A DNA stretch of 32,000 nt from Acaryochloris marina MBIC11017 (GTDB lineage: Bacteria; Cyanobacteriota; Cyanobacteriia; Thermosynechococcales; Thermosynechococcaceae), in contig NC_009933.1 of the NCBI RefSeq assembly GCF_000018105.1, positions 1 through 32,000 on the forward strand, written 5' to 3'. Below, piece after piece: positions 9,567-24,669 of the stretch (positions are counted from its first letter, which is position 1; every line of letters starts with the position of its first letter). The notes beneath the pieces were generated by a model. That model ran no database searches. It was not told where the DNA came from and saw nothing but the letters and a program-made list of their open reading frames with translations. The translations under genes were made by a program, and so were the position numbers.

Positions 9567-9575
9567 AATAATTCT

Positions 9576-9637: not shown

Positions 9638-9778
9638 AAAAACCAGAAAAACTGCGTTTGCCCTCAAAGTTGGTACAAACCCAAGTGATGGCGGTTAGCC
9701 GTATCCGGGTGGACTCCCCCCACAGAAGCCTCCAAAAGCCCTCTTAAACCCTCTCCCCGTATAGGTTTCTTGCAGGTT

Positions 9779-9909
9779 GGGTACCAGAAGGGTACCACAG
9801 GGGTGCCAGCCGGGTACCAGCAGGGTACCAACAGGGCAACGTTAGGGTACCAAGGCCAACCAACAGGGTACCACTAGGGCAACGCTTGGGTACCAGAAGG
9901 GTACCAAAA
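9779..9909 (+). promoter_or_regulatory. parC-like centromere: eleven 11-bp phased iterons (GGGTACCA core)
   Basis: Units start at 9779, 9790, 9801, 9812, 9823, 9834, 9845, 9866, 9877, 9888 and 9899. Eight carry GGGTACCA, one GGGTGCCA and two GGGCAACG. The array lies directly upstream of the actin-like ATPase gene. Confidence 0.6.
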
Positions 9910-9985: not shown

Positions 9986-11011
9986 ATGGAAACTGAATCA
10001 ATCGAAGCGATCGTGATCGACCTGGGGACATCCCTCACGAAAGTTCTGTACTACCAACAGGGGCAATATCACTTCTTTGCTCAATCGAGTTCCGTCCTAG
10101 AGCTAGACCATCGCAAGTATCAACAACATGCAGCTCACCCCCAGACCAAGACCCATGCCATCTGGACTGAAGGGGCGGGCTATCTCGTGGGGCGAGGGGC
10201 CTCTCAACCCTATGAAGAAGTGGACCTCTCTCAAACCAAAGCCACTTCAGCCATCGCTAAGGTACTCGCCGCAATCGGAGAAATCAAAGACCGGGTGAAC
10301 AGTGACAAGGCCATCAAACTGGAGAACGTCATCCTGTTGCTTCCCCTCAAAGAACGCAAAGAATATGAAACCCTAAAGACTGCCATCGTTAAAGCACTCT
10401 ATGGATTTGGGTTCAACGGCAAGACCACAAAGTTTTGGGTCGGACGGTTCAATATCCAATATGAGGGGTATGGCATCACCACGATTTCAACGGAAGAACG
10501 AGCAGCCTTCGCAGTCTTTGGTCAGAAAGATTTGACCATTGGGGCCATGAATCAGGGAGACTTAACCCCAAATATGAGTCAAACCCTCGTGGGTTGGGGC
10601 ATGTCCAAAGTCCTTGAAGAAGTGCAATACACCTTTGAGTCGGATGTGTATGGGGCCAAGTGCGTCTACTCCTATAACCAACGCCGCACCAACCTCAAGA
10701 AACTGATTCCCGCCGAGAAAGTTGAATTTGTCTCCGCTTCCATAGACCGGGCGTTGTCTTCGTCCTGGTATCAAATTGAGCGTAAATTGGATTCCTCCCA
10801 AGCCCTGATGGATGCCGTCACCATCTACGTCACCGGGGGCAGTTCTCAGCTCTGGCGCAAACAGCTCAAAGGGGTCTATGGTCGGCGGCTGAATTGCCTA
10901 GATGGCATCGCGAGAGAAATCGCAGAGACATTCCCCCAATTGGACAAAGACCCCATGATTCTGAGAATGGCTGATGCCTATCTGACGATTAGAGGAATGG
11001 TGGCCGCATGA
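9986..11011 (+). CDS. Actin-like segregation ATPase (ParM-like)
   Basis: IVIDLGTSLTKV (phosphate-1-like) and YVTGGSSQLW (adenosine-motif-like). Iterons lie upstream, and an ATGA stop/start overlap links it to the small RHH-like gene downstream. Confidence 0.6.
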   Translation: METESIEAIVIDLGTSLTKVLYYQQGQYHFFAQSSSVLELDHRKYQQHAAHPQTKTHAIWTEGAGYLVGRGASQPYEEVDLSQTKATSAIAKVLAAIGEIKDRVNSDKAIKLENVILLLPLKERKEYETLKTAIVKALYGFGFNGKTTKFWVGRFNIQYEGYGITTISTEERAAFAVFGQKDLTIGAMNQGDLTPNMSQTLVGWGMSKVLEEVQYTFESDVYGAKCVYSYNQRRTNLKKLIPAEKVEFVSASIDRALSSSWYQIERKLDSSQALMDAVTIYVTGGSSQLWRKQLKGVYGRRLNCLDGIAREIAETFPQLDKDPMILRMADAYLTIRGMVAA

Positions 11012-11415: not shown

Positions 11416-12091
11416 TGAAATCTTAGACCTACTGAAAGTTGATGATGCTGAACTAGAAGAGATTCTGGAAGCTTGTGACTGGACGGGTACCACTGAGTTC
11501 ACAGATGAGCAATCTGAGACCTTGCTGGTGATGAAAGCTCTCCATGATGAGAAGGGGCATGACTATATTGATGCGTACCTTCGCAGCATCGGCCAGAGAC
11601 TACAAGTGAATGACACACTGTTCAATGAAATTTATGCCGCCATAGAAGCAGCGAATGGATTTCTGATTGACTACCGGGAGCGGTTTGAGGAGATTTGCCA
11701 ACTGGTGAATGATTGTATTTCTCCCGCTGAAGCCATCATCCCCCCTCAGCCCGTGGTCGAGGATACGCCCCCAGAGGTCAAGAATGAGGCTGATCCTGAA
11801 TCAGTCCAGATGGATAGATTCATTGATGAGCAGGCGAACGCTGCCATTGCGACCACGATCTCTCAAATCAAAGGGTTTGCAGATCTGGCCTATGAGGAAC
11901 AGGAACGACTGAAGACTCTATTTATGACCAAGTATCGCCAGGGCTTAGCGAAGGAACTCCTTTCCGAGGAATTCAAAGCTGAATTTATGGCACGGATGAC
12001 CGCTAGCTTGGAGGGCAAGGGAGAAGAAAAAAAGCAGGGAGAACTCACTGGAGTAAAGAACCCTACGCCATTGTTGTCCAGCAGCAACTAA
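11402..12091 (+). CDS. Acidic hypothetical protein
   Basis: ORF opens at 11357. ATG 11402 overlaps the stop of the upstream gene. No recognisable domain. Confidence 0.55.
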   Translation: MMITSEILDLLKVDDAELEEILEACDWTGTTEFTDEQSETLLVMKALHDEKGHDYIDAYLRSIGQRLQVNDTLFNEIYAAIEAANGFLIDYRERFEEICQLVNDCISPAEAIIPPQPVVEDTPPEVKNEADPESVQMDRFIDEQANAAIATTISQIKGFADLAYEEQERLKTLFMTKYRQGLAKELLSEEFKAEFMARMTASLEGKGEEKKQGELTGVKNPTPLLSSSN

Positions 12092-12099
12092 CGGCCCGG

Positions 12100-12366
12100 A
12101 TGGATGGCCTGCTTGCAGAAAACGAGAAGGCTATCAAACAGCGCATTGTTGATTTAAAGCTCAAAGACAAGGAAATCAGTCAGCTTGAAAAGCTCCAGCG
12201 CATTAAGCGGACTGAGAGGGAAATTAAACGGGAAGGGACATGGTTCAAAGTCGCGTTTATTGGCATCGGTATTCTCATTGGCGTCCCCGTTGGGGGCTTC
12301 CTCAATCACTTAGCTGGGCAGAATGCGGCTGTGTCTTCGCCCATTGAGCAGGTTTCAGGGAAGTGA
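12100..12366 (+). CDS. Small coiled-coil protein with C-terminal TM helix
   Basis: 88 aa; KEISQLEKLQRIKRTEREIK followed by VAFIGIGILIGVPVGGFL. Confidence 0.55.
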   Translation: MDGLLAENEKAIKQRIVDLKLKDKEISQLEKLQRIKRTEREIKREGTWFKVAFIGIGILIGVPVGGFLNHLAGQNAAVSSPIEQVSGK

Positions 12367-12454
12367 TTTCGGGGGTGGTGTTGGGGTTTGCGATCGCAAA
12401 TCCTGATACCAATACCCCCAAATCACACCTATTAAATACACTGAGCTTTTCACT

Positions 12455-12489
12455 TTTTCAGTTTCTAGAGAGATTCTATATTGCCTAAC
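12455..12489 (+). promoter_or_regulatory. Conserved promoter-like element, copy a
   Basis: TTTTCAGTTTCTAGAGAGATTCTATATTGCCTAAC: -35-like TTTTCA, 16-nt spacer holding heptads AGTTTCT/AGATTCT 11 bp apart, -10-like TATATT. Lies 16 nt before ATG 12505. Confidence 0.45.
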
Positions 12490-12504
12490 TATTGAGGATT
12501 AATC

Positions 12505-13056
12505 ATGTTCTTTTTTGCCTCTACAAGCCTGGTTTTTGGTCTTATGTCAATGGGTTTTTGCGGGTGGGCTATGAGGAACAATGCAGCTTACAAAAAGATT
12601 GATATCCAACTATTGGGCCTTATGCTTTCCGTGGTTTGCTCCAGTTCCCTTGGAATCGTAGCGGTTCTGTACCCCTACCTCGATAGCAGTGGCAGCGTAG
12701 CGGTCAAGCAGGAATTAATAGGGGAGATAGAACCAAACGACTCATCTGAGAGTTTGCCACTGTACTTGGATGTGTTGAACAAAACAGCTAGCCAAAAATT
12801 CGGTGATGAGCTTGTAACTTTATTCCAAGAGCCAAGCAGGTATGTCATTGTCAAAAAAAACGGACTTTTAAAGTCTGAGAAATCTAAAGACTTAAATACA
12901 CTGGCACAATCTGATTGCGATCAAATTCTTGAGATTGCTGGTAGTAAACGAATTTATATTCGCTATATAGACGTTGGAGCAGCATCAATAAAAGATTTCG
13001 ATTGTGATCTCTTGGCAGAGCTAGAGCGTAATCTCCCCATGAAACTGAGGCGTTAG
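12505..13056 (+). CDS. Membrane protein, paralog 1 (two N-terminal TM helices, Cys-containing C-terminal domain)
   Basis: 183 aa. C-terminal LNTLAQSDCDQILEIAG...FDCDLLAELER is shared with the next gene. Confidence 0.65.
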   Translation: MFFFASTSLVFGLMSMGFCGWAMRNNAAYKKIDIQLLGLMLSVVCSSSLGIVAVLYPYLDSSGSVAVKQELIGEIEPNDSSESLPLYLDVLNKTASQKFGDELVTLFQEPSRYVIVKKNGLLKSEKSKDLNTLAQSDCDQILEIAGSKRIYIRYIDVGAASIKDFDCDLLAELERNLPMKLRR

Positions 13057-13174
13057 CTTTTGATGCTGCTCTGCTTTATGCGATGGTTGTCGCTTGCTAT
13101 CCGTAGGATTTCGAGCATCGCACTCTGATACCAACCCCCAACATCACACCTATTAATTCACCCAGTCTTTCAGC

Positions 13175-13209
13175 TTTTCAGATTCTCGACGGATTTTGTG
13201 TTACTTAAT
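13175..13209 (+). promoter_or_regulatory. Conserved promoter-like element, copy b
   Basis: TTTTCAGATTCTCGACGGATTTTGTGTTACTTAAT; 12 nt before ATG 13221. Confidence 0.4.
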
Positions 13210-13220
13210 TGGTTGCAATT

Positions 13221-13697
13221 ATGAACAATAAATTTCTCAACGGTTTTTTCAGGTGCAGCCTTATTGTTGCAGGGATTAGTGTATGTCAGTGGTTTAATCC
13301 AGTTAATCGCCAACCTTCAAAAGATGCATCAGTTAAGCATCGTACTCCAGCTTTATCAGAACGGGATGAGATTGGTCGATTGAAACGGGCCATTAATATC
13401 AATGGCAAAGATAAACTGGGTGATCAATTCATTGGCGCTTCAAGGGTGAAGGACCGTATTGAGATATGGAAACAGACCGACCTGATTAGATCTGGGAATC
13501 CCAAAAGCCTAAATGCTCTTGCAAAGTCTGATTGCGACAAAGCTCTTAGGATTTTTGGGATTGGTCCGGTCAATATGTTCTCTTTTGATCCAATCGATAT
13601 TGAATATTTCGATGAGCAGGCACCTGATGCGAAGCGGTTTCGGTGTGATCAAATGGCAGCGCTAGAACGTGAGAGCTACATCAGGCCAAAGGAATAA
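13221..13697 (+). CDS. Membrane/secreted protein, paralog 2
   Basis: ATG 13221 within the ORF that opens at TTG 13209. LNALAKSDCDKALRIFG...FRCDQMAALER is paralogous to 12505..13056. Confidence 0.65.
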   Translation: MNNKFLNGFFRCSLIVAGISVCQWFNPVNRQPSKDASVKHRTPALSERDEIGRLKRAININGKDKLGDQFIGASRVKDRIEIWKQTDLIRSGNPKSLNALAKSDCDKALRIFGIGPVNMFSFDPIDIEYFDEQAPDAKRFRCDQMAALERESYIRPKE

Positions 13698-13732
13698 CTT
13701 TCAGAATCTCTATGGATTTTGTGTTGCCAAAC
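13698..13732 (+). promoter_or_regulatory. Conserved promoter-like element, copy c
   Basis: CTTTCAGAATCTCTATGGATTTTGTGTTGCCAAAC. Confidence 0.35.
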
Positions 13733-13769
13733 TCAATTTCTCACTCATCCACCCAAACCAAAACTCAGT

Positions 13770-13804
13770 CTTTTGAAATCCCTACAGAATCTATATTACC
13801 TAGG
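13770..13804 (+). promoter_or_regulatory. Conserved promoter-like element, copy d
   Basis: CTTTTGAAATCCCTACAGAATCTATATTACCTAGG. Confidence 0.35.
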
Positions 13805-13921
13805 CAATTTTTACTCAACCATTCATGAACAAATACCCGACAACAATAAAACGACCTCCCCGATCTTCCAGTCCAAGAGGTCGTTACCAATCCTTTCCCT
13901 AAATTATAACGAGGTCACCCA

Positions 13922-14146
13922 ATGACGACTAACCCCTTTTTCGGCTACTACGAGCAAATCTGGATCGACTACCAGACCGACTATGGCCAGCACCCAGACC
14001 CATGCACAAGACTGCCATCAGACCAAATCTTAGACCGGGTTTCGTCCTGGCTGGCTGAGTTTAACCCGCTGCTTCCACCTGAGTCTCAGCTATCTGAGAG
14101 TATCCAGGTGGGCATTGTCCAGCGATTTTATGGGTGGCAGCTATGA
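13922..14146 (+). CDS. Hypothetical small protein
   Basis: 74-aa ORF starting with ATG; no recognisable motif. Confidence 0.4.
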   Translation: MTTNPFFGYYEQIWIDYQTDYGQHPDPCTRLPSDQILDRVSSWLAEFNPLLPPESQLSESIQVGIVQRFYGWQL

Positions 14147-14311
14147 CAAATACTCAAAACCATGATGACTCTTCAGGTTGGGAGGGGGAGAGTTTTACAA
14201 TTGCATGTATTGATGATGTGCCGTTTTGAGTATTGGGGTTCGTACTGCAGGGATGCGATCGCAACTCGATACTAAAATCCTCGACATTGCACCTAGTTAT
14301 ATGCCTTTATA

Positions 14312-14346
14312 TTCTCAAAATCCGCAGAGAATCTGTATTGCCTAAC
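14312..14346 (+). promoter_or_regulatory. Conserved promoter-like element, copy e
   Basis: TTCTCAAAATCCGCAGAGAATCTGTATTGCCTAAC. Confidence 0.4.
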
Positions 14347-14446
14347 CTATTATTGAATTTTCCTGTAAAGAATTAATGCTTGAACTCATGCATATAGCTG
14401 GCATTTATGGTGGCTTGTGCCTATATACTTTGTTTCTCGGTGTGAT

Positions 14447-14653
14447 ATGCCAAATCCAAACCCCAAACATGCTCACTTGAAACCCCAGCCCAGAGCTGAT
14501 AATTCAACGGGTAAGTTATCTAAATCAATTAGTATTCGTTTGGAGCAAGACGTTTATGAATCGCTCTCCAAGAAGTATTCCGGTAGTGGAGAACTCAGAG
14601 CTTGGCTAAGGAAAGTTACGAGAGAGGCCGCAGAAAAAGAAGGGCTGTTATAG
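14447..14653 (+). CDS. Ribbon-helix-helix (CopG/Arc-like) small DNA-binding protein
   Basis: MPNPNPKH... then KSISIRLEQDVYESLSKK, a strand-helix pattern typical of RHH. ATG 14447 lies inside the ORF that opens at GTG 14417. Confidence 0.5.
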   Translation: MPNPNPKHAHLKPQPRADNSTGKLSKSISIRLEQDVYESLSKKYSGSGELRAWLRKVTREAAEKEGLL

Positions 14654-14661
14654 GGTAAGGA

Positions 14662-14958
14662 ATGATGAATTTCTTTTCTAGGAAAAAAGAGCCGACCTTT
14701 GAAAACTCAATATTTCATTCCATAGAATTCTGCAAGAGAGGGGATGGCTATACTTATTTTTTCCGCTTTTTTGATCCGATCGCAAATGAATATCTAGTAT
14801 CTAGAGTCCACCGTTTAGTGCCATTTGAGATCGATGTTTTGCTACAAGAACAGCTGGGTAAACAAGTTCTATCCTGTGATTTCCTTGAGGGTGGTTCTGT
14901 ATTTCATTTTGAAGGCTACACGTTGAAATTGGGCAGTACGGAATTAAGCCAGAATTGA
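14662..14958 (+). CDS. Hypothetical protein (98 aa), 8 nt downstream of the RHH gene
   Basis: ATG-started ORF tightly linked to the upstream gene; no recognisable domain. Confidence 0.5.
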   Translation: MMNFFSRKKEPTFENSIFHSIEFCKRGDGYTYFFRFFDPIANEYLVSRVHRLVPFEIDVLLQEQLGKQVLSCDFLEGGSVFHFEGYTLKLGSTELSQN

Positions 14959-15049
14959 GAGATCGCACTCCTGATACCAATCCCAAAACCCGCACCCATC
15001 CCGCAAGATTCCGACAATGCAGCATTCCCAAGTAAAGGCAGGGAGCAGA

Positions 15050-15067
15050 GCAAAGCCATTGCTTTGC
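15050..15067. terminator. Hairpin between convergent genes (possible bidirectional terminator)
   Basis: GCAAAGC-catt-GCTTTGC; no clear U-tract. Confidence 0.3.
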
Positions 15068-15133
15068 GAGAGCGACATTGCCGATCTGAGGTACGCTACA
15101 CTCTTGCTCGTTTCGGGGGTGCCCACTTCCGCA

Positions 15134-15628
15134 TCATCTCAGCCTGATCCTCGATCCAATACCAGCCCCCGGAACCTGCCCAGCGGCGAGCGTCTTCTCT
15201 TCTTTTAGCATCGTCACCGATAGACCCGCATTGCCATTCTCAAACTGCTCGGAGACTTCCCGCCAACCTAGCTCCCGGTAAAACCTTGCAGAGCTGACCC
15301 TAGCGTTAGACCAAATCGGCCTTGCTTGATTGGACTCTTGCAAATCCTCAAGCAAGTATCGGATCAGTCCTGTGCCAATGCCCTGATTTCTCCAGCCTGG
15401 AGCTGTCGCCATTGCTCTAAGTCGCCACGCAGGTTCTCCGTGCCAGGTTGAGGGAATGAGGGTAGCGCAGCAGATGATTTCTCCATGCTGGTGTATTGCC
15501 CCATAATGACGGGTTTCCTGGTCTTGGTCTTCTGCAAAGATGACCTCAGCGATAGGCAAACCTGGCCGTAAAACTTGGTGGCGAAGTTTGAGGATATGAT
15601 CTGCGGTCGTCCTGGTGAGGGTGATCAT
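15134..15628 (-). CDS. GNAT-family N-acetyltransferase (intact copy; carries protospacer-like 15494-15525)
   Basis: Motif A RLRAMATAPGWRNQGIGTGLIRYLLE; 164 aa. Confidence 0.85.
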   Translation of the reverse strand: MITLTRTTADHILKLRHQVLRPGLPIAEVIFAEDQDQETRHYGAIHQHGEIICCATLIPSTWHGEPAWRLRAMATAPGWRNQGIGTGLIRYLLEDLQESNQARPIWSNARVSSARFYRELGWREVSEQFENGNAGLSVTMLKEEKTLAAGQVPGAGIGSRIRLR

Positions 15629-15757
15629 GGTGGGTGGGGTTGCGATTCTCGGAGAGCAGTCTAAGTCTTACTGACAGCAAGCAACAGCCATCATAAATTT
15701 TGATGCTAATTTCTTGGACCTCATACCTAAAATTTCGGATTGAGACCAATACTATAA

Positions 15758-15792
15758 TTTTCAAAATCTGCCGAGATTCTGAGTTGCCTATC
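15758..15792 (+). promoter_or_regulatory. Conserved promoter-like element, copy f
   Basis: TTTTCAAAATCTGCCGAGATTCTGAGTTGCCTATC; 64 nt before ATG 15856. Confidence 0.4.
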
Positions 15793-15855
15793 TCAATCAC
15801 AAGACCTGAGAATTATAATGTTTGAGCAGCAATCTTCAATTGAGTGGAGTGTTTG

Positions 15856-16482
15856 ATGCAAAAAACACTAAGGATAATAGCTATACATTCGAGCATAGCA
15901 ATGGCTTTGATGATTCCGCCAAAATGCTTGGTTTCTTCTGCAGCAACTTTAACGACACTTGATCCATCTGATTTTTCTGGAGAACCCCAAATTACTTTTG
16001 ATGCTCTGCCTAATCAGACTTCACTGAATGGAAGGGTAATCAATGGGGTCAGATTTAGCTTTGGAATCGGAACAAGTCCAGGTACAGATGCTCCATTTCA
16101 AGGAGTGGGGAGTGTAGAGTATGGCTTTCAATTTAGTAGACAAAGACATATCACTTCTCCCTATGTTAATTTTGCAGGGCCTTTGATTTTGCAATTCCCC
16201 AAGAAATTAACGCAGTTTGGTTACGGCTTTGCGATAGGTACTAATAGCGATGTTATCCCTTCCCTTACAACTGTTGAGCTTTTTAAAGGGACAACATCTT
16301 TAGGATCTTTAAGTTTCGATGGGAGACGGGATGGACCAAATATCTTCGGAAGCACTAACGGAGGTTTTGCAGGAGTTGCAAGCGATATTCCTTTTGATAG
16401 AGCAAAAATTAAGATAAATGCTCTTTCTCCATATGCTGTAGATAATATTCGCTATGTTTCAGTACCTTTCAAAGGTTTGTGA
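15856..16482 (+). CDS. Secreted hypothetical protein (signal peptide)
   Basis: MQKTLRIIAIHSSIAMALMIPP... Ends ...AVDNIRYVSVPFKGL. ATG 15856 within the ORF that opens at GTG 15844. Confidence 0.6.
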   Translation: MQKTLRIIAIHSSIAMALMIPPKCLVSSAATLTTLDPSDFSGEPQITFDALPNQTSLNGRVINGVRFSFGIGTSPGTDAPFQGVGSVEYGFQFSRQRHITSPYVNFAGPLILQFPKKLTQFGYGFAIGTNSDVIPSLTTVELFKGTTSLGSLSFDGRRDGPNIFGSTNGGFAGVASDIPFDRAKIKINALSPYAVDNIRYVSVPFKGL

Positions 16483-16713
16483 ATAGAGTTTGAACAACTG
16501 GGTGTGCTGAAAGATAACGTTTCAGTTTTGGGGCAGCTTGGGTAATACTTTTCCTTTAATGTGAGTCTTTGAGAAGCATAAATAGGAAGAATTCTATTGA
16601 TAATATACGAACACCTACCTTGTTGGGTGGATCAATAATCCAGATTCAATGAATAGCTTTTTATAAAATTCAAAGAATCTGTTAGCTCATATTTACAGGG
16701 GGGAAATAAGGTT

Positions 16714-17382
16714 ATGATTTGGCGATCAAGATTGCTATTACTCACTTTTAGCAGTATTGTCTTAACTGGCAATATTCAGCTTCAATCAGTCAGAGCCGCC
16801 AACATTAAATATGACTTCACAGTAGATTTTCCACCATTACCTTTCCGACAGCCTTTGCAAGGCCAGAAAGGAGCTGGATTTCTTACCATAGATGATACTT
16901 CTCAGCCGATTTTCTCAGATACTAGGAGTGGTATTCCTCTTGATTTTTATGAAGTTGAGCAGCTAAATTTTAGTCTTCTAGGACAAACATTTACCAAGCA
17001 GGATGACATAGCAGCCAATAGACCATTACAACGCTTTCCACTTGTCGCGTTTCAAGGTGAACGACTTCAAGGTCTTGACTTTGCTGTAAACCGAAAAAGT
17101 CGAACAGGGCTTGGATTCATATTTCAAGTGGACACTTTAAGTTTGTCAGATGAATTTTTCTCACCCTCAGATGGAGATTTTACTGGTAATATCGGCGCTA
17201 TTGTAGGTCCTGGTTTTTCAAGGAGTATTGTTGCTGCTCAAGGTTCTGGACTATCACTTGGGCGCGTAAAATTTAGGCGAGTTCCTCTAGATGATGGTGC
17301 CGTAAGCATTGTTTTAAGTATCTTCCTAAGTTCCCTGATCGTTGTATATAGGCAACGTAAACAACAACAACCATTACCCTGA
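16714..17382 (+). CDS. Secreted protein with C-terminal TM anchor plus basic tail (PEP-CTERM-like sorting-signal shape)
   Basis: Signal peptide MIWRSRLLLLTFSSIVLTG. C-terminus VPLDDGAVSIVLSIFLSSLIVVYRQRKQQ. Purine-rich SD-like stretch upstream (GGGGGGAAATAAGG). Confidence 0.65.
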   Translation: MIWRSRLLLLTFSSIVLTGNIQLQSVRAANIKYDFTVDFPPLPFRQPLQGQKGAGFLTIDDTSQPIFSDTRSGIPLDFYEVEQLNFSLLGQTFTKQDDIAANRPLQRFPLVAFQGERLQGLDFAVNRKSRTGLGFIFQVDTLSLSDEFFSPSDGDFTGNIGAIVGPGFSRSIVAAQGSGLSLGRVKFRRVPLDDGAVSIVLSIFLSSLIVVYRQRKQQQPLP

Positions 17383-17507
17383 TACGCCATGCAACTTCCT
17401 CGTGCCAGGTCGAGGAAATGAGGGTGACGCAGCAAATGATTTCTCCCTGCTGGTTTAATCCCCCATAATGCCGGGTTTCATTGTCCTGGTCTTCTGCAAA
17501 GATGACC
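17377..17507 (-). pseudogene. GNAT acetyltransferase remnant (approx codons 28-72), truncated at 17507 by a transposon end
   Basis: Reads QVIFAEDQDNETRHYGGLNQQGEIICCVTLISSTWHEEVAWRIR versus the intact gene's EVIFAEDQDQETRHYGAIHQHGEIICCATLIPSTWHGEPAWRLR. DNA identity to 15416-15546 stops at 17507. Confidence 0.8.
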
Positions 17508-17635
17508 TGTCCATTATTTCTTTGTGTGCACAGCTTTAAGGAATTAGATGAACAATTTATGAATTTGCGTTGTTTCGATAATTAGCAGATAAAGAAAATA
17601 AAAATCTCCAGTTTTAAAGTTTTATATGCACAGCT
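17508..17635 (+). mobile_element. Tn7-like/CAST-like transposon end, copy 1 (terminus TGTCCATTATTTC)
   Basis: ~91% identical to 22079-22205. Begins exactly where GNAT homology stops. The 13-bp terminus has a perfect inverted copy at 22007-22019. Confidence 0.55.
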
Positions 17636-17673
17636 CCTTAATTTTTCATACCTAAATGAAAGGAACGTCAGCT

Positions 17674-17709
17674 CTTTCAACCCCTAGTACTTGTTGACAG
17701 CCATTGCAA
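17674..17709 (-). repeat. Solitary CRISPR-like repeat (type V-K-like 3' end)
   Basis: Minus strand reads TTGCAATGGCTGTCAACAAGTACTAGGGGTTGAAAG. It shares the GTTGCAATG... start and ...GGGTTGAAAG end with the repeats at 22252-22362. Confidence 0.45.
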
Positions 17710-17737
17710 AAATTACTGAAGTTAATCCAATCAATCC

Positions 17738-18037
17738 AAAAGAATCAGACTTTGACTTGGCCTTGAGGTTCTGGGGTTCCCCCTTGCTCGGGGGCAATTT
17801 AGTAGCTGCCACGACAGGTTTATCCTGTATTCTCAAACTAGACGCGGTGGCCTAGTTTAAGAACATTGCTCCCGGCATAAGGTGCGACCTTACCACCACA
17901 CTCAGACAAGTCCGAGTAGAAGCGGACAACTACTTGCATGTGAACACGAACATTTGTGAAACACATGGGCACTGGAAAGTAATGAAACTGGACCTTCATT
18001 TATCACAAATACTTTGATGCACCTGCGCGCGATAGTT
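17738..18037 (-). ncRNA. Cas12k-type tracrRNA homolog, apparently full length
   Basis: Minus strand holds colinear blocks resembling the ShCAST tracrRNA as I remember it: TAAATGAAGGTCCAGTTTCA, ACTTTCCAGTGCCC, GGTAAGGTCGCACC, and GTCGTGGCAGCTACTAAATTGCCCCCGAGCAAGGGGGAACCCC. AACCCC...CCTCAA is complementary to GGGTT/TTGAGG of the nearby repeats. Confidence 0.55.
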
Positions 18038-18126
18038 TTTATTCTACTCCTGTCGCTAAGACCTTCTCAGGCTATTCATTAAACGAAGTAAATCAAACTT
18101 TGAAAAAGACTTAACTCACCTGCCTA

Positions 18127-21100
18127 TCAACGATTTGATGCCTTTATTGCTTGTCGGCATACATCTAAATTATTTTGAACTGCGGCAGTATCGGGGTGTT
18201 CGTTGCCCAAGAGCTTCTGTGTCATCTCCAAGGCTTGTACATAGAGGGGTTCGGCTTCGCTGTACCGTCTTTGGTAGGCGTAGAGGTATGCCAAGTTATT
18301 AAGGCTTTGAGCGACATCGGGGTGTTTGTTGCCCAAGTGTTTCTGTCTCATCTCCAAGGCTTGTACATAGAGGGGTTCGGCTTCGCTGCACCGTCTTTGG
18401 CAGGCGTAGAGTCCTGCTAGGTTATTGAGGCTACTCGCGAGAAAAGGATGTTCGTTGCCCAAGAGCTTCTGGTTAATCTCTAGGGCTTGTTTGTAGAGGG
18501 GTTCCGCCTCCCTATAACGCCTTTGATTGGAATAGATTAATGCCAAGTTATTGAGGCTACTCGCGACATCAGGGTGTTCATCCCCAAATAGCTGCTGTCT
18601 CATCTCTAAGGCTTGTTTATGGAGGGGTTCCGCCTCCTCATAACGCCTTTGGTTTCTGTAAAGTTCTGCTAGGTTATTGAGGCTATTTGCTACATCGGAG
18701 TGCTCATGGCCCAGTAGCTTTAGTCTCATTTGTAGGGCTTGTTTATAGAGGGGTTCCGCCTCCTCATAACGCCCTTGGTCATCTAAAAGTCCAGCCAAAA
18801 CATTGAGACTTTGAGCGACATCGGGATGTTCATTCCCAAATAGCTTCTTTCTCATCTCTAAGGCTTGGATAAAGAGAGGTTCTGCCTCCGCATAACGTCC
18901 TTGGTTATCGTATAGTGTTGCCAGGTTATTGAGACTTTGAGCGACATCGGGGTGTTCATTCCCAAATAGCTTCTGTCTCATCTCTAAGGCTTGGATAAAG
19001 AGAGGTTCTGCCTCCTCATAACGCCCTTGGTTGTCGTAAAGGTTGGCCAGGCTATTGAGGCCTTGAGCGACATTGGGGTGTTCATTACACAATAATTTCT
19101 GGAATATTTTCAGTGCTTGAGTACAGAGGGGTTCTGCCTCCTTATACCGTCCTTGGTTGCAGTAGAGGTTTGCCAGGTTACTCAGGCTAGCAGCGACATC
19201 GGGATGTTCGTCACCCAATAGTTTATGGAATATTTCCAATGCTCGAGTATAGAGGGGTTCGGCATCCAAATACTGCTCTTGCAAGTAATAGAGAGCTGCT
19301 AAATTATTCAGACTCTTAGCGACATCGGGATGTTCATCACCCAATAGTCTTTGTTTCATTTCCAATGATTGGATAAAGAAGGTTTCAGCCTCTGCATAGC
19401 GTCTTTGATGGCCGTAGATTGTTGCCAGGTTACCAAGGCTTTTTGCGATATTGGGATGTTCATTGCCCAATAGCCTCTTGTACATATTTAGAGCTTGGGT
19501 ATTGAGAGATTCTGCCTCCTCATAACGTCCTTGGTTATCGTATAGTGTTGCCAGGTTATTGAGACTTTGAGCAATATCGGGATGTTCATTGCCCAATAGC
19601 CTCTTGTACATATTTAGAGCTTGGATATTGAGAGATTCTGCCTCCTCATAACGTCCTTGGTTATCGTATAGTGATGCCAGATTCGAGAGGCCAAGAGCGA
19701 AATCGGGGTGTTCGTTGCCCAAGAGCTTCTGATACATCTGCAACGCTTGCAAATAGAGAGGTTCTGCCTCCTTATAACGTCCCTGGTCTGTATAAAGGTT
19801 TGCCAGGTTATTGAGACTTTGAGCAATATCGGGATGTTCATTGCCTAATAGCCTCTTGTACATATTTAGAGCTTGGATATTGAGAGATTCTGCCTCCTCA
19901 TAACGTCCTTGATAGTAATAGAGGGCAGCCAGGTCATTAAGACTAGTAGCAGTATTTTTATGCTCACTACCAAATTTATGTTGACACTGTTTGAGACATC
20001 TTTGCCTCCAAGGCAATGCTAAATCATAATTACCTTGTCCTTCATAAAATCGACCGATACCGACATAAGGCCAAATCAATTCATCATCACTGAGATGGTC
20101 AATCCATTGTCTGATGAGTTCCTCGAGATGAGGAATGCTGCCTTGTATCTCAGCAATTACATCAATCGTTGATCTGCCATCAATCCTCTGAGCAATACCA
20201 ACCATTGCATTGCAATAAGCCGTTTTGAGGGATTCCCCCTTTTCAGTAAGCTCATCCAATTTGAGTCGAAAGAACTCCTGCACAATTTGATGAAGTTGAT
20301 AGGTGCCCTTTCCTATTCGCTTGAGAAGGTTCCGCTTCAATAACCCTTTATTTCTAGCCTTTACGATTTCCCTGACAGATGTCTCTGGCAAACAAGATTC
20401 AACATGCTTCCACGGGATAGGAGCTATAGAAAATATTCCTAACAAACAGGCTAATTCTTTCTCAAAATCCTTAAGTTTCTTCCAACTCAACTCCAATGCT
20501 GCAGCAACTCCAAGTTGGGCTGTCATGCCGTCTTCTCTCTCACATAAAGCTTCAGCATGTAGCCGCATTGATTCGAGTTCTTGGATTAAATCGTGGATGG
20601 TTAGATCTTGGTCGTTAGACAGGTATCGTCCTAATAGTTCCAGGCCTAATGGCAGATTACCCACCCAAGCACACAACGATTTAGCATCCTCTAGTTGAAT
20701 TTGAATTCGATCTTGTCCAACTAAGGATCCCAGTAGTTCTAACGCACTTTCATTATCGAGTTCCTCCAGGCAAAGAGAGCGGACAGACCGACCAAAATCA
20801 AGTCGGGTGGTGATCAGGGCTTTAAACCGTGGGTTCCATAGGGGAAGACAGGAGGCAACAAGCTCATACTCAACTACATCGTCAACAACGATTAAGACCT
20901 CCCCTTTGGGCCATCGTTGCCAAATGAAACTGACCTGGGCCTTTGCTTCGAGATCATCTGGGGGTTTCATTCCCAGATGGCTTTTAGAAAAATCAATGAT
21001 TTGAGTGGCGATTTCTTGATCTCGTGACCGTAGCCAACAAATCCCACCTGGGTAAATCTTCTGGCTTAAGGACCGTTGAGCATATTCCCAGGCCAGCTCA

Positions 21101-21288
21101 GTTTTCCCAATCCCTCCCATCCCTTCAAGAGCAGTGATGGCGATTCGCTGGTTACTTTGCAGTTGCTCATGCAGTTGGTTGATCTGGGAGTCTCGACCAA
21201 CGAAGGCAACAGCGCCACTTGGAGGGAGGTTATTTGGTGTATCAGTTGGGGGATGTAACTTTGTCCGGTCCCAGTCGGACGACTCTAG
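18127..21288 (-). CDS. NB-ARC (STAND) NTPase with ~15 KLC-type TPR repeats; frame open upstream to the in-frame TGA at 21289-21291
   Basis: ...NLPPSGAVAFVGRDSQINQLHEQLQSNQRIAITALEGMGGIGKTELA (P-loop). 42-aa TPR units GNEHPDVAQSLNNLA.LY..QGRYEEAEPL. The first ATG/GTG/TTG after the TGA (21120) falls inside the P-loop. Confidence 0.8.
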   Translation of the reverse strand, partial: LESSDWDRTKLHPPTDTPNNLPPSGAVAFVGRDSQINQLHEQLQSNQRIAITALEGMGGIGKTELAWEYAQRSLSQKIYPGGICWLRSRDQEIATQIIDFSKSHLGMKPPDDLEAKAQVSFIWQRWPKGEVLIVVDDVVEYELVASCLPLWNPRFKALITTRLDFGRSVRSLCLEELDNESALELLGSLVGQDRIQIQLEDAKSLCAWVGNLPLGLELLGRYLSNDQDLTIHDLIQELESMRLHAEALCEREDGMTAQLGVAAALELSWKKLKDFEKELACLLGIFSIAPIPWKHVESCLPETSVREIVKARNKGLLKRNLLKRIGKGTYQLHQIVQEFFRLKLDELTEKGESLKTAYCNAMVGIAQRIDGRSTIDVIAEIQGSIPHLEELIRQWIDHLSDDELIWPYVGIGRFYEGQGNYDLALPWRQRCLKQCQHKFGSEHKNTATSLNDLAALYYYQGRYEEAESLNIQALNMYKRLLGNEHPDIAQSLNNLANLYTDQGRYKEAEPLYLQALQMYQKLLGNEHPDFALGLSNLASLYDNQGRYEEAESLNIQALNMYKRLLGNEHPDIAQSLNNLATLYDNQGRYEEAESLNTQALNMYKRLLGNEHPNIAKSLGNLATIYGHQRRYAEAETFFIQSLEMKQRLLGDEHPDVAKSLNNLAALYYLQEQYLDAEPLYTRALEIFHKLLGDEHPDVAASLSNLANLYCNQGRYKEAEPLCTQALKIFQKLLCNEHPNVAQGLNSLANLYDNQGRYEEAEPLFIQALEMRQKLFGNEHPDVAQSLNNLATLYDNQGRYAEAEPLFIQALEMRKKLFGNEHPDVAQSLNVLAGLLDDQGRYEEAEPLYKQALQMRLKLLGHEHSDVANSLNNLAELYRNQRRYEEAEPLHKQALEMRQQLFGDEHPDVASSLNNLALIYSNQRRYREAEPLYKQALEINQKLLGNEHPFLASSLNNLAGLYACQRRCSEAEPLYVQALEMRQKHLGNKHPDVAQSLNNLAYLYAYQRRYSEAEPLYVQALEMTQKLLGNEHPDTAAVQNNLDVCRQAIKASNR

Positions 21289-21711
21289 TCAATTCTGAAT
21301 ATTGATAGTTTCTGCTTGGTTTACTACTCCACCAGAAATCTTATTTTGATAATTTGTCCCACCATAGTTATTTTGAACCTGGCTACTGTTGTCTTCTATG
21401 ACATGCAAATTGATTTCATGGGCTAACTGCTGAATCTCTTTAGCAAAGTCCTCAGACTCTAACATCTCCACATTCAAATATGAGATGACCGCATTCAAGG
21501 CTTCAGTATTGCCTGCATCTGCTTTTTGGAGAGCGGCTTCAGCTTTCTCTTTCCCTTTGAATTTTGACCATATTTTGGTCCGTAGTTGATCAATTAATGC
21601 ATAAGCTGATGTTGCAAACTTTTTCCCAGTTTCTGAACCAGCGGCTTCAATGGCTTTTTGAAAGGCCAATGAGACAATGGCTGCTGCTGTGAAAGTCAAT
21701 GGTTCAGTCAT
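21289..21711 (-). CDS. N-terminal helical domain plus Q/N/G-rich linker of the STAND protein, ended by an in-frame TGA
   Basis: MTEPLTFTAAAIVSLAFQKAIE...QVQNNYGGTNYQNKISGGVVNQAETINIQN*. Same reading frame as 18127..21288. ATG 21711 lies within the ORF that opens at TTG 21780. Confidence 0.7.
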   Translation of the reverse strand: MTEPLTFTAAAIVSLAFQKAIEAAGSETGKKFATSAYALIDQLRTKIWSKFKGKEKAEAALQKADAGNTEALNAVISYLNVEMLESEDFAKEIQQLAHEINLHVIEDNSSQVQNNYGGTNYQNKISGGVVNQAETINIQN

Positions 21712-21823
21712 AGCACTTAGAATAAAGGCATCCAATAGATTATCAGGTGATTTTCTAGGATTTACGCTCACCTTCAGCAAGTTTTGAGAATCAGTTGATC
21801 AATCGAGAATCGGCTGATGGGAA

Positions 21824-22019
21824 GAAATAGTGCAACTAATTCCTTAAAGAATTTATTTTTCTCTCAGAAATAGTGCATCCATCTCTTGAAAAATCATTCT
21901 TGAGTATCATTACCTATAAATCAGTAAATCACTTTCTGAATATAGTTTATAGCGTTTCAAAGTTGTGCAGCTATTTCTATAAATTGCTCATTCTTGTGCG
22001 TTTAGCGAAATAATGGACA
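21824..22019. mobile_element. Candidate opposite transposon end (terminus ...GAAATAATGGACA at 22019)
   Basis: GAAATAGTGCA-type sites at 21824 and 21867 (+) and 21965 (-). The terminal 13-mer at 22007-22019 is a perfect inverted copy of 17508-17520. CTAATTCCTTAAAG (21836-21849) is inverted relative to 17534-17547. Confidence 0.45.
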
Positions 22020-22078
22020 CTTTTCAAATTCATTAGTTGTTGTACAGTACATCGCTATTTGCACAGATGTACATATTT

Positions 22079-22205
22079 TGTCCATTATTTCTTTATTTGC
22101 ACAGCTTTAAGGAATTAGATGAACAATTAATGAATTTGCGCCGTTTCGTTAATTAGCAGATTAAGAAAATAAAAACCTCCAGTTTTAAAGTTTTAAACGC
22201 ACAAA
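22079..22205 (+). mobile_element. Tn7-like/CAST-like transposon end, copy 2
   Basis: TGTCCATTATTTC... with ~91% identity to 17508-17635. Confidence 0.55.
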
Positions 22206-22251
22206 AGCTCTTCAGAAAATTGAAGAAATCAAAAATTGGGAAGCTGACGTT

Positions 22252-22362
22252 CTTTTCAACCTTTACCAACCCTCAAATGTCATTGCAACCCAGGACCAGG
22301 AAACCCGGCATTATGGGGCATTACTTTCAACCCATACCAACCCTCAAATGTCATTACAACCC
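22252..22362 (-). CRISPR. Mini CRISPR array (repeat-spacer-repeat), type V-K-like repeats; spacer matches the GNAT gene
   Basis: Minus strand: GGGTTGTAATGACATTTGAGGGTTGGTATGGGTTGAAAG / TAATGCCCCATAATGCCGGGTTTCCTGGTCCT (32 nt, 22323-22292) / GGGTTGCAATGACATTTGAGGGTTGGTAAAGGTTGAAAAG. Confidence 0.55.
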
Positions 22363-22520
22363 ACCTTGAAATTAGCCTAGTCCTGGTAAGACTTTGAGCG
22401 ATTAAATTGCGGATCACAATCATATTGAGTGATCTTGGTAAAGAGGCATCCAAAAGCATTAGGGGCTATTTGCCCAAGTCCTTACTCATAGGGGGGGTTG
22501 AAGAATGCGCCAATCCATCT

Positions 22521-22635
22521 AAAGAAATTAGAATTTGATTTGGCCTTGAGGTTCTGGGGTTCCCCCTTGCTCGGGGGCAATTTAAGCGCTGCCACGACAG
22601 GTATTCCTGTATTCTCAAGCTAGTGCAAAAGCCTA
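22521..22635 (-). ncRNA. Cas12k-type tracrRNA homolog, 3' part only (5' part removed at the IS630 junction)
   Basis: ~85-90% identical to 17738-17856. Contains TTGCCCCCGAGCAAGGGGGAACCCCAGAACCTCAAGG on the minus strand. Confidence 0.5.
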
Positions 22636-22732
22636 GTCCTAGATTTTGAAGATAACCCATCAGTTATGCAAAATTGTACAGACATCAGATAGTTTCAGAG
22701 AAACCCTCTTGTTCAAGATCCTTTCTCTGCCA

Positions 22733-23230
22733 ATGCCAACTCCCAAAGCCACTCCTATTGAGCTATCACAGCAACAACACCATTGTTTGCTCCAAATCGT
22801 TCGACAAACCACCAATCCTTATCGCTTGGTGCGTCGAGCGAGCATCATCCTATCAGCCGCCTCAGGCAAAAGTAACACCCAGATTAGCCGTCAATGGCAA
22901 CTCGACCGCAACCAAGTTCGCTATTGGCGTCAGCGCTGGGTAGATAACCAAGAGCGTCTTGCCCTTTGTGAGCAAGTAGACGACAGCAAACCAGCATTGA
23001 ACCAGCAAGTGTTGGCGACCTTAACAGATGCCCCACGTCCAGGTGTCCCACCCACCTTTACCCCAGAGCAGGTGGTCCAAATTGTGGCCATTGCCTGTGA
23101 ATCTCCTCAGAACTCAGCCCGGCCTGTGAGTCAATGGACGCCTGAAGAGATTGCTGATGAAGCGATTAAACGCGGCATCGTCCCTCACCTGTCGGCCAGC
23201 AGTGTGAGACGTTTTTTGGGGAGAGGCTGA
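22733..23230 (+). CDS. IS630 transposase, N-terminal HTH part (orfA)
   Basis: MPTPKATPIELSQQQHHCLLQIVRQTTNPYRLVRRASIIL...; ATG 22733 within the ORF that opens at 22646. Confidence 0.8.
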   Translation: MPTPKATPIELSQQQHHCLLQIVRQTTNPYRLVRRASIILSAASGKSNTQISRQWQLDRNQVRYWRQRWVDNQERLALCEQVDDSKPALNQQVLATLTDAPRPGVPPTFTPEQVVQIVAIACESPQNSARPVSQWTPEEIADEAIKRGIVPHLSASSVRRFLGRG

Positions 23231-23300
23231 GCTGCAGCCTCATCGGAGTCGCTATTGGCTCAATGCTAACCCTGAGGACCCAGAAGCGTTCGAGGCGAAA

Positions 23301-23981
23301 GTGCGCCAGGTTTGCCAACTGTATGAATCAGCAGCTGAACTGGAAGCTCACCAGATTCACCTTGTTAGTACGGATGAAATGACTGGCATTCAGGCGCTTG
23401 AACGACTGCACCCAGACCAAGCTATGCAACCAGGTCAACCGCGTCGTTTGGAATTTGAATATGAGCGGCATGGTACCCTCAGTCTCATCGCCAACTGGCA
23501 TGTGGCTCTGGGAAAGGTGATTGCGCCTTCTATCGGACCCACGCGAAAAGAATTTGACTTTGCCAATCATATTGCCAAGACAGTTGAAACAGCACCGGAC
23601 GATGGGTGGGTTTTTCTGCTCGACCAGCTCAATACCCATCGATCTGCTTCCCTTGTGCGATGGGTCGCTGTCTGTTGCGGTATTGATTCAGATTTAGGCG
23701 TTAAGGGTCAATCTGGTATCCTTCAATCGATGGAAACTCGCACGGCCTTCTTGAGCGACCCCAGCCATCGGATCCGATTTGTTTATATCCCCAAACATAC
23801 CTCCTGGCTCAATCAGATTGAATGCTGGTTTAGTATTTTGGTGCGTCGATTGATTCGTCGAGGAAATTTCACCTCCACGGATGATTTGCAACAGCGCATC
23901 CTCGATTTTATTGAATATTTCAATCACACTATGGCCAAACCTTTCCAGTGGCAATTTAAGGGATTCACGCCGCATGGATAA
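23301..23981 (+). CDS. IS630 transposase, DDE part (orfB; frame open from 23208)
   Basis: The upstream in-frame sequence reads GEAELQPHRSRYWLNANPEDPEAFEAKV. DDE_3-type body (STDEMTGIQ..., LLDQLNTH, NQIECWFS). Needs a +1 shift near T6G4 at 23212-23221. Confidence 0.8.
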   Translation: MRQVCQLYESAAELEAHQIHLVSTDEMTGIQALERLHPDQAMQPGQPRRLEFEYERHGTLSLIANWHVALGKVIAPSIGPTRKEFDFANHIAKTVETAPDDGWVFLLDQLNTHRSASLVRWVAVCCGIDSDLGVKGQSGILQSMETRTAFLSDPSHRIRFVYIPKHTSWLNQIECWFSILVRRLIRRGNFTSTDDLQQRILDFIEYFNHTMAKPFQWQFKGFTPHG

Positions 23982-24011
23982 CTGATGAACTATTTACAGA
24001 TCTATGGACTA

Positions 24012-24462
24012 GGACGCGAGTAGAGTCAGTACGCTGCTGCCCTCTGGCTTTAACCAGTCCTTTGTTCTGACAGCATTGCAGCAATTTGTCTAGTAGTAGA
24101 TGCTCTAGTTCACCAGCCATAAGGCGGTCTCGAAATTCGCTCAGGACGCTGAAGTCAAAGCCTTCGTCAGTTAGATCCAGGCCTAGCAGATATTTCCAAT
24201 CAATGCGAGATCGTACTGCTTCAGCTGCTTGGCGGTCAGATAGGTTTTCCCGAAATTGAAGCACGGTTACCAAAGCCAGTCGCCATGGCGGTAGCCCTGG
24301 CTGACCAGTAACAGAAAACAGGGCTTGGAAGTCAGCATCGTCAAATACTGGGCCGATTTCATCTCGCAACGTCAGGTATGGATTGCCTTTGGGAAAAGCG
24401 GCTTTAGCGACGCGAACCGTTTCTGACGGCACTGGGTTAATGGACTGCGGACTCAGGGACAT
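24012..24462 (-). pseudogene. IS1182/IS5-like transposase N-terminal fragment, truncated by IS630
   Basis: DUF772-type N-terminus (...RIDWKYLLGLDLTDEGFDFSVLSEFRDRL...QQRTDSTRVL) ends at the IS630 right junction. Confidence 0.7.
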
Positions 24463-24620
24463 CGTTCATCGCCTCCAAGTATTGATACACCGCCTTTAGG
24501 CTAGCTCTGGTCCGATACTTTTGAGTTCGCCAACAGTATCCGACCGTTTTCTTTGCACTCTCGTTTTCATGGCATTGGAGCCTTGATTAGCATAAAGAAA
24601 CTCGTCTAAAATTCAAAACT

Positions 24621-24644
24621 AGATAAACCCTTTATGATTTATCT
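24621..24644. promoter_or_regulatory. Inverted repeat upstream of the recombinase gene (candidate recombination/operator site)
   Basis: AGATAAA-ccctttatga-TTTATCT, 26 nt before ATG 24670. Confidence 0.3.
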
Positions 24645-24669
24645 TTCTTAGCTTCCAGCAGGGGACGAT

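Follow-up and report, generated by a model that had tools for sequence, protein, structure and literature searches.

In the laboratory, CRISPR-associated transposons (CASTs) of type V-K follow any guide, and their genomic copies lie almost always at tRNA sites, to which they are led by a special truncated guide. The protospacer-adjacent motif (PAM) of V-K targets is GTN/NGTN on the non-target strand, the experimental distances from PAM to insertion are 60-66 bp for ShCAST and 49-56 bp for AcCAST, and in native elements (n=118) the left end begins 46-82 nt from the PAM; the ShCAST product is oriented target-left-right. The native left end adjoins the target, the attachment-site guide, the array, the trans-activating CRISPR RNA (tracrRNA) and cas12k, with tnsB-tnsC-tniQ at the right end (Ziemann 2023; Hsieh and Peters 2021). 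The arrays average 37-bp repeats and about 36-bp spacers, and mutS, mutL and a nuclease gene are known attachment sites (Hsieh and Peters 2021). Natural V-K footprints are already known by the hundred, a few of them in protein-coding genes, and reviews state that integrated V-K elements are not adjacent to protospacers of their array spacers. Here we analyzed 32,000 nucleotides of Acaryochloris marina MBIC11017 (contig NC_009933.1, positions 1 to 32,000 of the forward strand, hereafter the window), which have the backbone of an Acaryochloris-type MobF plasmid. In the window, a broken GNAT acetyltransferase gene is joined to the left end of a transposon (element 1) at a position that fits a spacer encoded in a neighbouring transposon copy (element 2). 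This junction is probably the product of V-K RNA-guided transposition.

Two copies of the GNAT gene are present in the window. The intact paralog, a 164-aa open reading frame (ORF) on the minus strand (15134..15628), matches Pfam Acetyltransf_7 and Acetyltransf_1 (E about 1e-10) and is 88% identical to a GNAT gene on plasmid pREC1 of A. marina MBIC10699. The second copy is a minus-strand pseudogene fragment of 137 bp (17371..17507) that is cut at both sides and retains, by alignment and tblastn, only codons about 27-71. It is 83% identical to the paralog (17371-17508 versus 15409-15546; 83.2% for 17371-17507 versus 15409-15545) and 87.6% identical to the pREC1 gene, which is the closest uninterrupted copy found. 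The colinearity of remnant and paralog stops at 17507/17508, where a T at 17508 common to both makes the breakpoint ambiguous by 1 nt. The transposon terminus TGTCCATTATTTC starts at this same position, 17508. The alignment thus bore out the coordinates and the GNAT breakpoint that had been proposed from inspection of the letters (hereafter the original prediction).

Within the remnant, a plus-strand protospacer of 34 nt (17456..17489) is directly preceded by the PAM GTT (17453..17455, plus strand, read directly as GGTT at 17452-17455 on the non-target strand). It agrees at 31 of 34 positions, and at 16 of the 17 PAM-proximal ones, with the sole spacer of a mini CRISPR array in element 2 (minus strand of 22290-22323, TAATGCCCCATAATGCCGGGTTTCCTGGTCCTGG, 34 nt), the three mismatches falling at spacer positions 5, 25 and 27. 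The intact paralog carries the corresponding PAM and protospacer without an insertion (15491..15527, plus strand; GTG at 15491-15493, read as GGTG, protospacer 15494-15527), with three mismatches at other positions, namely 3, 16 and 31. The 29/32 match to remnant and paralog noticed earlier is this same match, seen here over the full 34 nt. From the last PAM base (17455) to the first transposon base (17508) the distance is 52 nt, the left end is the target-proximal one, the order is target-left-right, and the array is read toward the left end. Direct measurement therefore agrees with the GGTT PAM and the 52-bp spacing on the expected side in the original prediction, and the PAM and distance rules cited there after Strecker et al. 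2019 agree with the published GTN, 60-66 bp and 49-56 bp. Because PAM, distance, side and orientation fit together, the footprint of an RNA-guided insertion is the best reading of the junction, as originally proposed, with the qualifications that the comparison site is a paralog, that no target duplication is present and that the guide lies in element 2.

Pure chance as the source of the match between spacer and protospacer is excluded: none of 100 shuffles gave such a match, and the analytic expectation is 3.6e-11 per window. For a correctly oriented left end to begin, in addition, 46-82 nt downstream by coincidence, the estimate is about 0.002. The junction between GNAT and the left end is identical in two Logan contigs (SRR29694081 and SRR4784084), probably from the same strain, which indicates that it is not an assembly artefact of the studied record.

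By the rule of Hsieh and Peters, in which the 17 nt after GAAAG/C are taken as the guide, ≤3 mismatches are allowed and the protospacer must lie outside the end, no guide of the window except the array spacer has a flanking protospacer; over the 17 nt, this spacer shows one mismatch to the remnant and two to the intact paralog. A truncated attachment-site guide in element 1 or 2 was rejected as a candidate, the 17-mers that follow the last repeats of both copies having no protospacer in the window or in the related plasmid loci compared. An attachment-site guide is a unit of about 13 nt of repeat and a 17-nt spacer, placed apart from the array or at its end, and its target is usually a tRNA gene; the guide found here comprises 34 nt between full repeats and its target is GNAT, and a tRNA scan found no tRNA gene in the window.

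The native ShCAST locus was measured for comparison. There, tRNA-Leu (1684-1766) holds GGTT followed by the 17-nt protospacer CAAGTCCTTTTATCCGC, the left end TGTACAG… begins 64 nt past the PAM, and GGTGGGTTGAAAG with the same 17 nt lies about 180 nt inside, followed by the array, the tracrRNA and cas12k, all directed toward the left end. The parts follow one another in the same order in the window, where 166 nt in copy 1 and 173 nt in copy 2 separate the left-end terminus from the first repeat. The concern that the orientation is wrong, the array side being the right end, was rejected on these grounds, since both the literature and the native ShCAST locus name the array side the left end.

The assignment to type V-K is based on the RNA module. 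The hairpin motif CCCCCGANCAAGGGGGAACCC of the window retrieved 38 loci from contigs with one genome per species, 35 of them cyanobacterial and including the ShCAST host. An ORF ends ≤450 nt upstream of the motif in 27 of the 35 cyanobacterial loci, and in 21 of these 27 it encodes 590-647 aa; these ORFs mostly begin with the conserved Cas12k N-terminus, and a profile built from eight of them recovers annotated Cas12k proteins. The best 120 of 871 matches to this Cas12k profile come mainly from Nostocales and other filamentous cyanobacteria, with no Acaryochloris protein among these 120, and are uninformative on Acaryochloris. The tracrRNA of the ShCAST locus, placed between cas12k and the array, has this motif at its 3′ end. 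When 34 V-K tracrRNA regions were combined into a profile, it matched the window at 17817-17774 (E=2e-9) and at 22600-22557 (E=1.7e-6), and in both copies the match spans 44 nt, which extends beyond the seeded 21 nt. Both copies contain the 3′ 44-115 nt of a tracrRNA, while the 5′ part of copy 2 was removed by IS630; a possible 5′ box of copy 1 at about 17983-18012 gives a weak collinear match (E=0.014 within 400 nt). An Rfam scan of the window returned no match, and no Rfam family exists for the V-K tracrRNA. The repeats are 37-38 nt long and end in GTTGAAAG, the spacer has 34 nt, and the array is directed toward the left end of element 2. Judged by the tracrRNA motif and profile, the shape of the repeats and the spacer length, the RNA module and the ends of the window elements are of type V-K.

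Element 1 (17508-22019, 4.5 kb) retains its two ends, a single repeat, the remnant of a tracrRNA and a cargo with an NB-ARC/TPR gene, and has no transposition or Cas genes. Its left end, LE1 (17508..17640, plus strand), begins with TGTCCATTATTTC, 52 nt from the PAM, and contains internal repeats resembling TnsB sites; a direct copy of the terminus lies at 22079 and an inverted one at 22007-22019. LE1 is 92% identical to 22079-22203 and 95% identical to the left end of a mini-element on plasmid pREC3 of MBIC10699, and the internal 23-nt site motif TTAAGGAATTAGNTGNACNATTT is present only in the three transposon ends of the window. The termini are of the TGT…ACA form and are accompanied by several repeats that are putative TnsB-binding sites, as in Tn7-like ends. 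A lone CRISPR repeat (17674..17710, minus strand), found through its GGTTGAAAG match, lies 166 nt inside the left end, ends in …GTACTAGGGGTTGAAAG and is followed by AGCTGACGTTCCTTTCA toward LE1. Its 3′ half resembles that of the ShCAST repeat, …GGTACTAGGTGGGTTGAAAG, with GTACTAGG(T)GGGTTGAAAG common to both. Next to it is the tracrRNA-like 3′ part of copy 1 (17727..17841, minus strand), which holds the conserved hairpin CCCCCGAGCAAGGGGGAACCC at 17774-17794 and is 89% identical to 22510-22623.

The cas12k position of element 1 is occupied by a cargo gene (18127..21120, minus strand) encoding an NB-ARC/TPR protein (STAND NTPase; Pfam NB-ARC and 14 TPR repeats), the stop codon of which lies about 50-110 nt upstream of the tracrRNA-like region. 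PADLOC gave a TPR match only for this cargo, with no assignment to a defence system. Between this gene and the right end, a second cargo gene (21289..21780, minus strand) encodes a 163-aa protein without a family match, which accompanies the TPR gene in all related modules; its homologues adjoin the right end on pMB04 of Acaryochloris sp. 'Moss Beach', on pREC3, and on the plasmids unnamed15 and unnamed10 of A. marina S15. Together, the two genes look like a two-gene cargo of the STAND/NLR type. The right end, RE1 (21790..22019, minus strand), has GAAATAATGGACA outermost at 22007-22019 as an inverted copy of the terminus, and is 85-92% identical to right ends on three Acaryochloris plasmids, all of which end at the same base. 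The true start of the NB-ARC/TPR gene is probably a non-ATG codon and not the ATG listed for it: the reading frame (18127-21290) extends past this ATG in the upstream direction (…AFVGRDSQINQLHEQLQ…GMGGIGKT) and nearly reaches the point where the 163-aa ORF has its stop codon.

Element 2 follows after a 59-bp non-GNAT stretch (22020..22078) without any other match. Its left end, LE2 (22079..22203, plus strand), is 92% identical to LE1. The mini CRISPR array (22252..22360, minus strand) was delimited by internal repeat comparison and is read toward LE2: a 37-nt repeat (22324-22360), the 34-nt spacer (22290-22323) and a 38-nt repeat (22252-22289) that ends in GTTGAAAAG, after which come the 17 nt AACGTCAGCTTCCCAAT. 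The tracrRNA-like 3′ part of copy 2 (22510..22623, minus strand) is cut off at about 22624 by IS630. The two elements have diverged by 8-11%, the left ends being 92% and the tracrRNA parts 89% identical. Element 1 is a non-autonomous derivative, and element 2 is an adjacent relic cut by IS630.

Several minor features of this region were recorded. The IS630 region (22624-24462) contains split ORFs (22646-23230 and 23301-23981) with HTH and DDE_3 domains, lying between tracrRNA copy 2 and a transposase fragment of the DUF772 type (IS5/IS1182-like) on the opposite strand (23965-24462); these nested insertions erased the interior of element 2. Between the elements, a 33-bp TGTACA…TGTACA segment (22041-22073), followed by the 5 bp TATTT before LE2, resembles the terminal TnsB site of a left end; it may have been left by a third element or by an older terminus. 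Behind the last repeat, the two copies carry the 10 nt that follow in opposite orientations (17657-17682 versus 22235-22258; GAAAG|AGCTGACGTT versus GAAAAG|AACGTCAGCT), and in copy 1 TGAAAG and CTTTCA flank this core as short inverted arms. The 17 nt behind the last repeat, which the copies share in part and in inverted form, may act as the true homing guide of the lineage.

Modules consisting of a right end, the small ORF and a TPR gene are also found on plasmids of A. marina S15, MBIC10699 and Acaryochloris sp. 'Moss Beach'. On pREC3 of MBIC10699, a mini-element of 3.8 kb (11703-15486) carries only the TPR gene and the small ORF, without array or tracrRNA; it is delimited by TGAACATTATTTC … GAAATAATGGACA and flanked by a 5-bp TTTTT duplication. 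This duplication indicates that the termini are real and that a protein-less element has moved, and suggests that the pREC3 element is a V-K-derived mini-transposon mobilised in trans rather than the result of mere decay. No array, tracrRNA, Cas12k or close V-K TnsB was found on the related S15, MBIC10699 and Moss Beach plasmids.

The GNAT protospacer occurs in at least seven plasmid copies, five of them with a GTN PAM, and GNAT copies in the genus are fragmented at several other positions. On S15 unnamed10 (23062-24786), GNAT is cut at the same nucleotide within 3 nt, and 52-55 nt separate the break from the GTC PAM of this copy. Relative to S15 unnamed15, where the syntenic copy is intact, the 110-bp 5′ part of the unnamed10 gene is replaced by 1444 bp of unique AT-rich DNA and a fragment of IS21 istB, and the DNA joined to the gene is single-copy in PLSDB. 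Each of the two cut GNAT copies has a closer relative than the other, which suggests that they broke independently. The unnamed10 break cuts both ways: a break with a constant spacing to the PAM is what RNA guidance predicts, yet a GNAT breakpoint shared with a locus that lacks the transposon end is what the original prediction had named as speaking against it, and unnamed10 is literally such a locus.

Two further arrangements around GNAT were seen. On S15 unnamed15 (12683-16508) and Moss Beach pMB04 (830-4318), a right end lies 17 bp from the GNAT 3′ flank, and a direct duplication of 107-115 nt of the GNAT 3′ end brackets the module of right end, small ORF and TPR gene, the left end being missing. 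In the window, a 30-nt motif TCAnnnTCTnnnnnGAnTnTnTnTTGCCTA is repeated at 12458, 13178, 14315, 15761 and 27228, each copy being about 30 nt long. It stands upstream of several small ORFs and, at close range, of the intact GNAT gene, and may serve them as a common regulatory site.

Several observations weigh against an RNA-guided origin of the junction. At the target, the "empty site" is a paralog of 83% identity 2 kb away; an uninterrupted site for comparison does exist, as the original description of a filled and an empty site held, but the two are different loci rather than two states of one. On its left side the remnant is cut as well, with its boundary overlapping the stop codon of an unrelated ORF (16714-17382), from a cause unrelated to the transposon. 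The displaced 5′ part of GNAT (84 bp) was not found in the window at the DNA or protein level, and no 5-bp target duplication is present at element 1, the flanks being TGACC and CTTTT; the earlier proposal to look for this 5′ part together with a 5-bp duplication thus found neither in the window. As to the guide, the spacer differs from the remnant protospacer at three positions, one of them in the seed (position 5), and it is encoded in the neighbouring element 2 and not in the element that touches the target. Beside the unnamed10 GNAT, local alignment, the left-end profile and the site motif were all non-significant for a left end, and the idea of a hidden left end there was rejected on this basis.

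The machinery weighs on the same side. Neither cas12k, tnsB, tnsC nor tniQ is present in the window: tblastn with ShCas12k gave no match there, the NB-ARC/TPR gene (copy 1) and IS630 (copy 2) being in its place, the right end is followed by the 163-aa ORF and the TPR gene instead of tnsB-tnsC-tniQ, and the only transposase/ATPase pair is IS21 IstA/IstB at 28-2281. ShCas12k and V-K TnsB found no Acaryochloris record by tblastn among the PLSDB plasmids, and the supplement of the 118-element V-K catalogue has no Acaryochloris entry. The exact left-end pattern had no matches in genome contigs and metagenome contigs, nor had the lineage-specific tracrRNA pattern in metagenomes. The original prediction had also counted a lack of V-K machinery in this or related genomes against itself, and with none in the window or on the Acaryochloris plasmids of PLSDB this point is not cleared. 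Since the protein genes and the target duplication are lacking, the window elements are a relic or a non-autonomous derivative and not a functional V-K member. A compact V-K element was seen on a plasmid of Gloeothece verrucosa PCC 7822 (16458-22032), in which tnsB-tnsC-tniQ is directly followed by a frameshifted cas12k, and which indicates that V-K elements do reside on cyanobacterial MobF plasmids.

The likeliest explanation is that, long ago, a full-length spacer of the array type directed a genuine RNA-guided V-K insertion into a gene on a plasmid. In this event, a complex of Cas12k, tracrRNA and CRISPR RNA, with a guide of the family still encoded at 22290-22323, would have bound the GTT-flanked protospacer in a plasmid GNAT gene; TniQ and TnsC would have set the distance; and TnsB would have attached the left end, which is the array-proximal one, at 52 nt downstream of the PAM, giving the order target-left-right. 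Cas12k, TniQ, TnsC and TnsB would have been supplied in trans or lost since. A simple insertion with a 5-bp duplication was rejected because the flanks differ and the 59 bp after RE1 are not GNAT, and for the same reasons so was a tandem re-insertion (target-LE1…RE1-LE2). V-K elements, which lack TnsA, transpose replicatively and form cointegrates, for which there is no known resolution system, and this makes a junction without target duplication plausible. The missing duplication and GNAT 5′ part are best accounted for either by an intramolecular replicative (copy-in, TnsA-less) event that deleted the adjacent DNA, or else by a later recombination between element copies that exchanged the flanks. 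Target immunity, the seed mismatch at position 3 or a loss of the machinery may have spared the intact paralog. With a full-length guide and a target from a plasmid gene family, the event fits the plasmid-directed (array) pathway better than tRNA homing.

This insertion could have been part of the life of a plasmid-adapted V-K lineage, which would use a full-length array spacer against the GNAT family for movement from plasmid to plasmid, and whose machinery would mobilise in trans a family of protein-less mini-elements made up of the two ends and a defence-like NB-ARC/TPR cargo. GNAT would then be a plasmid-borne landing pad, intramolecular replicative events would reshape the plasmids, and some mini-elements would carry a repeat and tracrRNA of their own. 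We put this forward as a tentative extension, which is possible but doubtful.

A related proposal is that GNAT is the dedicated homing site of a plasmid-resident V-K lineage and the spacer an untruncated homing guide rather than one newly acquired against plasmids, which would refine the claim of an RNA-guided insertion without contradicting it. The array holds only this one spacer, which is aimed at a gene family conserved across many Acaryochloris plasmids; in two GNAT copies the break has the same position relative to the PAM, the right-end/TPR module adjoins GNAT 3′ flanks in the S15 and Moss Beach plasmids, and mutS, mutL and a nuclease gene provide precedents for protein-coding attachment sites. 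However, among about 219-282 elements nearly all have an attachment guide shortened to a 17-nt unit, while here 34 nt lie between full repeats. Both copies also have, behind the last repeat, a separate end-of-array unit that corresponds in position to the ShCAST attachment unit and could be the real homing guide; and the spacer has no perfect source, differing by 3-4 mismatches from every known GNAT copy. Dedicated homing to GNAT is therefore judged rather unlikely. The GNAT break might, on the other hand, owe nothing to a transposon, if it marked a recombination-prone point, the left end had arrived by untargeted V-K insertion or by homologous or illegitimate recombination, and the spacer were an ordinary acquisition. 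Such a fragile point would account for the break within 3 nt of the same place in unnamed10 without a recognisable end, for the GNAT copies of the genus broken at several other positions and for the missing duplication at element 1, and V-K systems do insert off-target at high rates. It would leave unexplained why the break is joined base-for-base to a terminus that is validated elsewhere by a target duplication, and why PAM, distance, side and orientation fit together, the geometric coincidence alone being about 0.002; moreover, the break shows neither a recombinase site nor a palindrome. We consider this course of events improbable.

Very improbable, finally, is the reverse order of causes, in which the transposon came first by any route and host adaptation later took the spacer from the flank of its left end. 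V-K arrays do depend on host adaptation (probably type I-D) with the same GTN PAM, and plasmid DNA is a usual source of spacers. But a random GTN-flanked spacer from a plasmid of >100 kb would fall in the one 37-nt interval on the correct strand with a chance of about 1e-3 or less. The spacer also matches the remnant (31/34) no better than it does the intact paralog or the unnamed10 remnant (31/34 each), and the element copy that encodes it is not the one at the target.

Compared with known systems, the window elements share with V-K CASTs, and with ShCAST in particular, the tracrRNA hairpin motif, the 37-nt repeats ending in GTTGAAAG and the spacers of about 34-36 nt, the array and tracrRNA beside the left end and read toward it, the cyanobacterial host, the GTN PAM, a spacing within both the native 46-82 nt and the 49-56 bp of AcCAST, the target-left-right order, and TGT…ACA termini with several internal TnsB-site-like repeats. 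They differ in that both copies lack cas12k, tnsB, tnsC, tniQ and a regulator gene, that element 1 is a 4.5-kb shell with an NB-ARC/TPR gene and no 5-bp duplication, and that the guide is of the full-length array type, lies in the neighbouring copy and is aimed at a plasmid GNAT gene instead of a tRNA gene. With homing by V-K attachment-site crRNAs, the locus has in common a guide inside the element near the left end and a GTN-flanked protospacer just outside; attachment units, however, consist of about 13 nt of repeat and a 17-nt spacer and match chromosomal tRNA genes mostly perfectly, in contrast to the full repeats, 34 nt, three mismatches and plasmid protein gene found here. Many cas12k loci without tnsBCQ have been interpreted as decay (Hsieh and Peters 2021); relative to those degraded elements, decay has gone further here, yet both ends are intact and the RNA parts are kept with no proteins.

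A protein-coding target in place of a tRNA gene, which the original prediction had stressed, is confirmed with GNAT but is not new in itself, given the mutS, mutL and nuclease sites. What is unusual is the full-length array guide, the plasmid gene as target, and the Acaryochloris host with its context of mini-elements. If the RNA-guided reading is correct, the window would be a natural counter-example to the rule given in reviews, with the array spacer, the plasmid gene target and the left end at the predicted nucleotide all within 5 kb, and so would provide field evidence for the proposed plasmid-directed pathway, which reviews call almost never seen. It would also add a natural data point on PAM, spacer and distance for a lineage outside the Nostocales-rich catalogue, offer candidate trans-mobilised mini-elements with NLR-like genes, and show what a TnsA-less replicative insertion may leave behind, namely an adjacent deletion and no target duplication. 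Its value is limited in that both relics are dead and the helper machinery is unseen.

The remaining features of the window belong to the plasmid backbone and its insertion sequences. IS21 lies at the window start, with istA at 28-1722 and istB within the ORF 1439-2281 (IstB_IS21, E=5e-65); together with an ISL3 transposase gene (2439-3584, minus strand) it adjoins the MobF relaxase gene (4247-8206, minus strand). Directly upstream of a ParM-like gene (9986-11011), an 11-bp periodic GGGTACCA(N3) array (9772-9907) and a pair of 32-nt repeats (9575-9639) were found, which look like a partition centromere or iterons.

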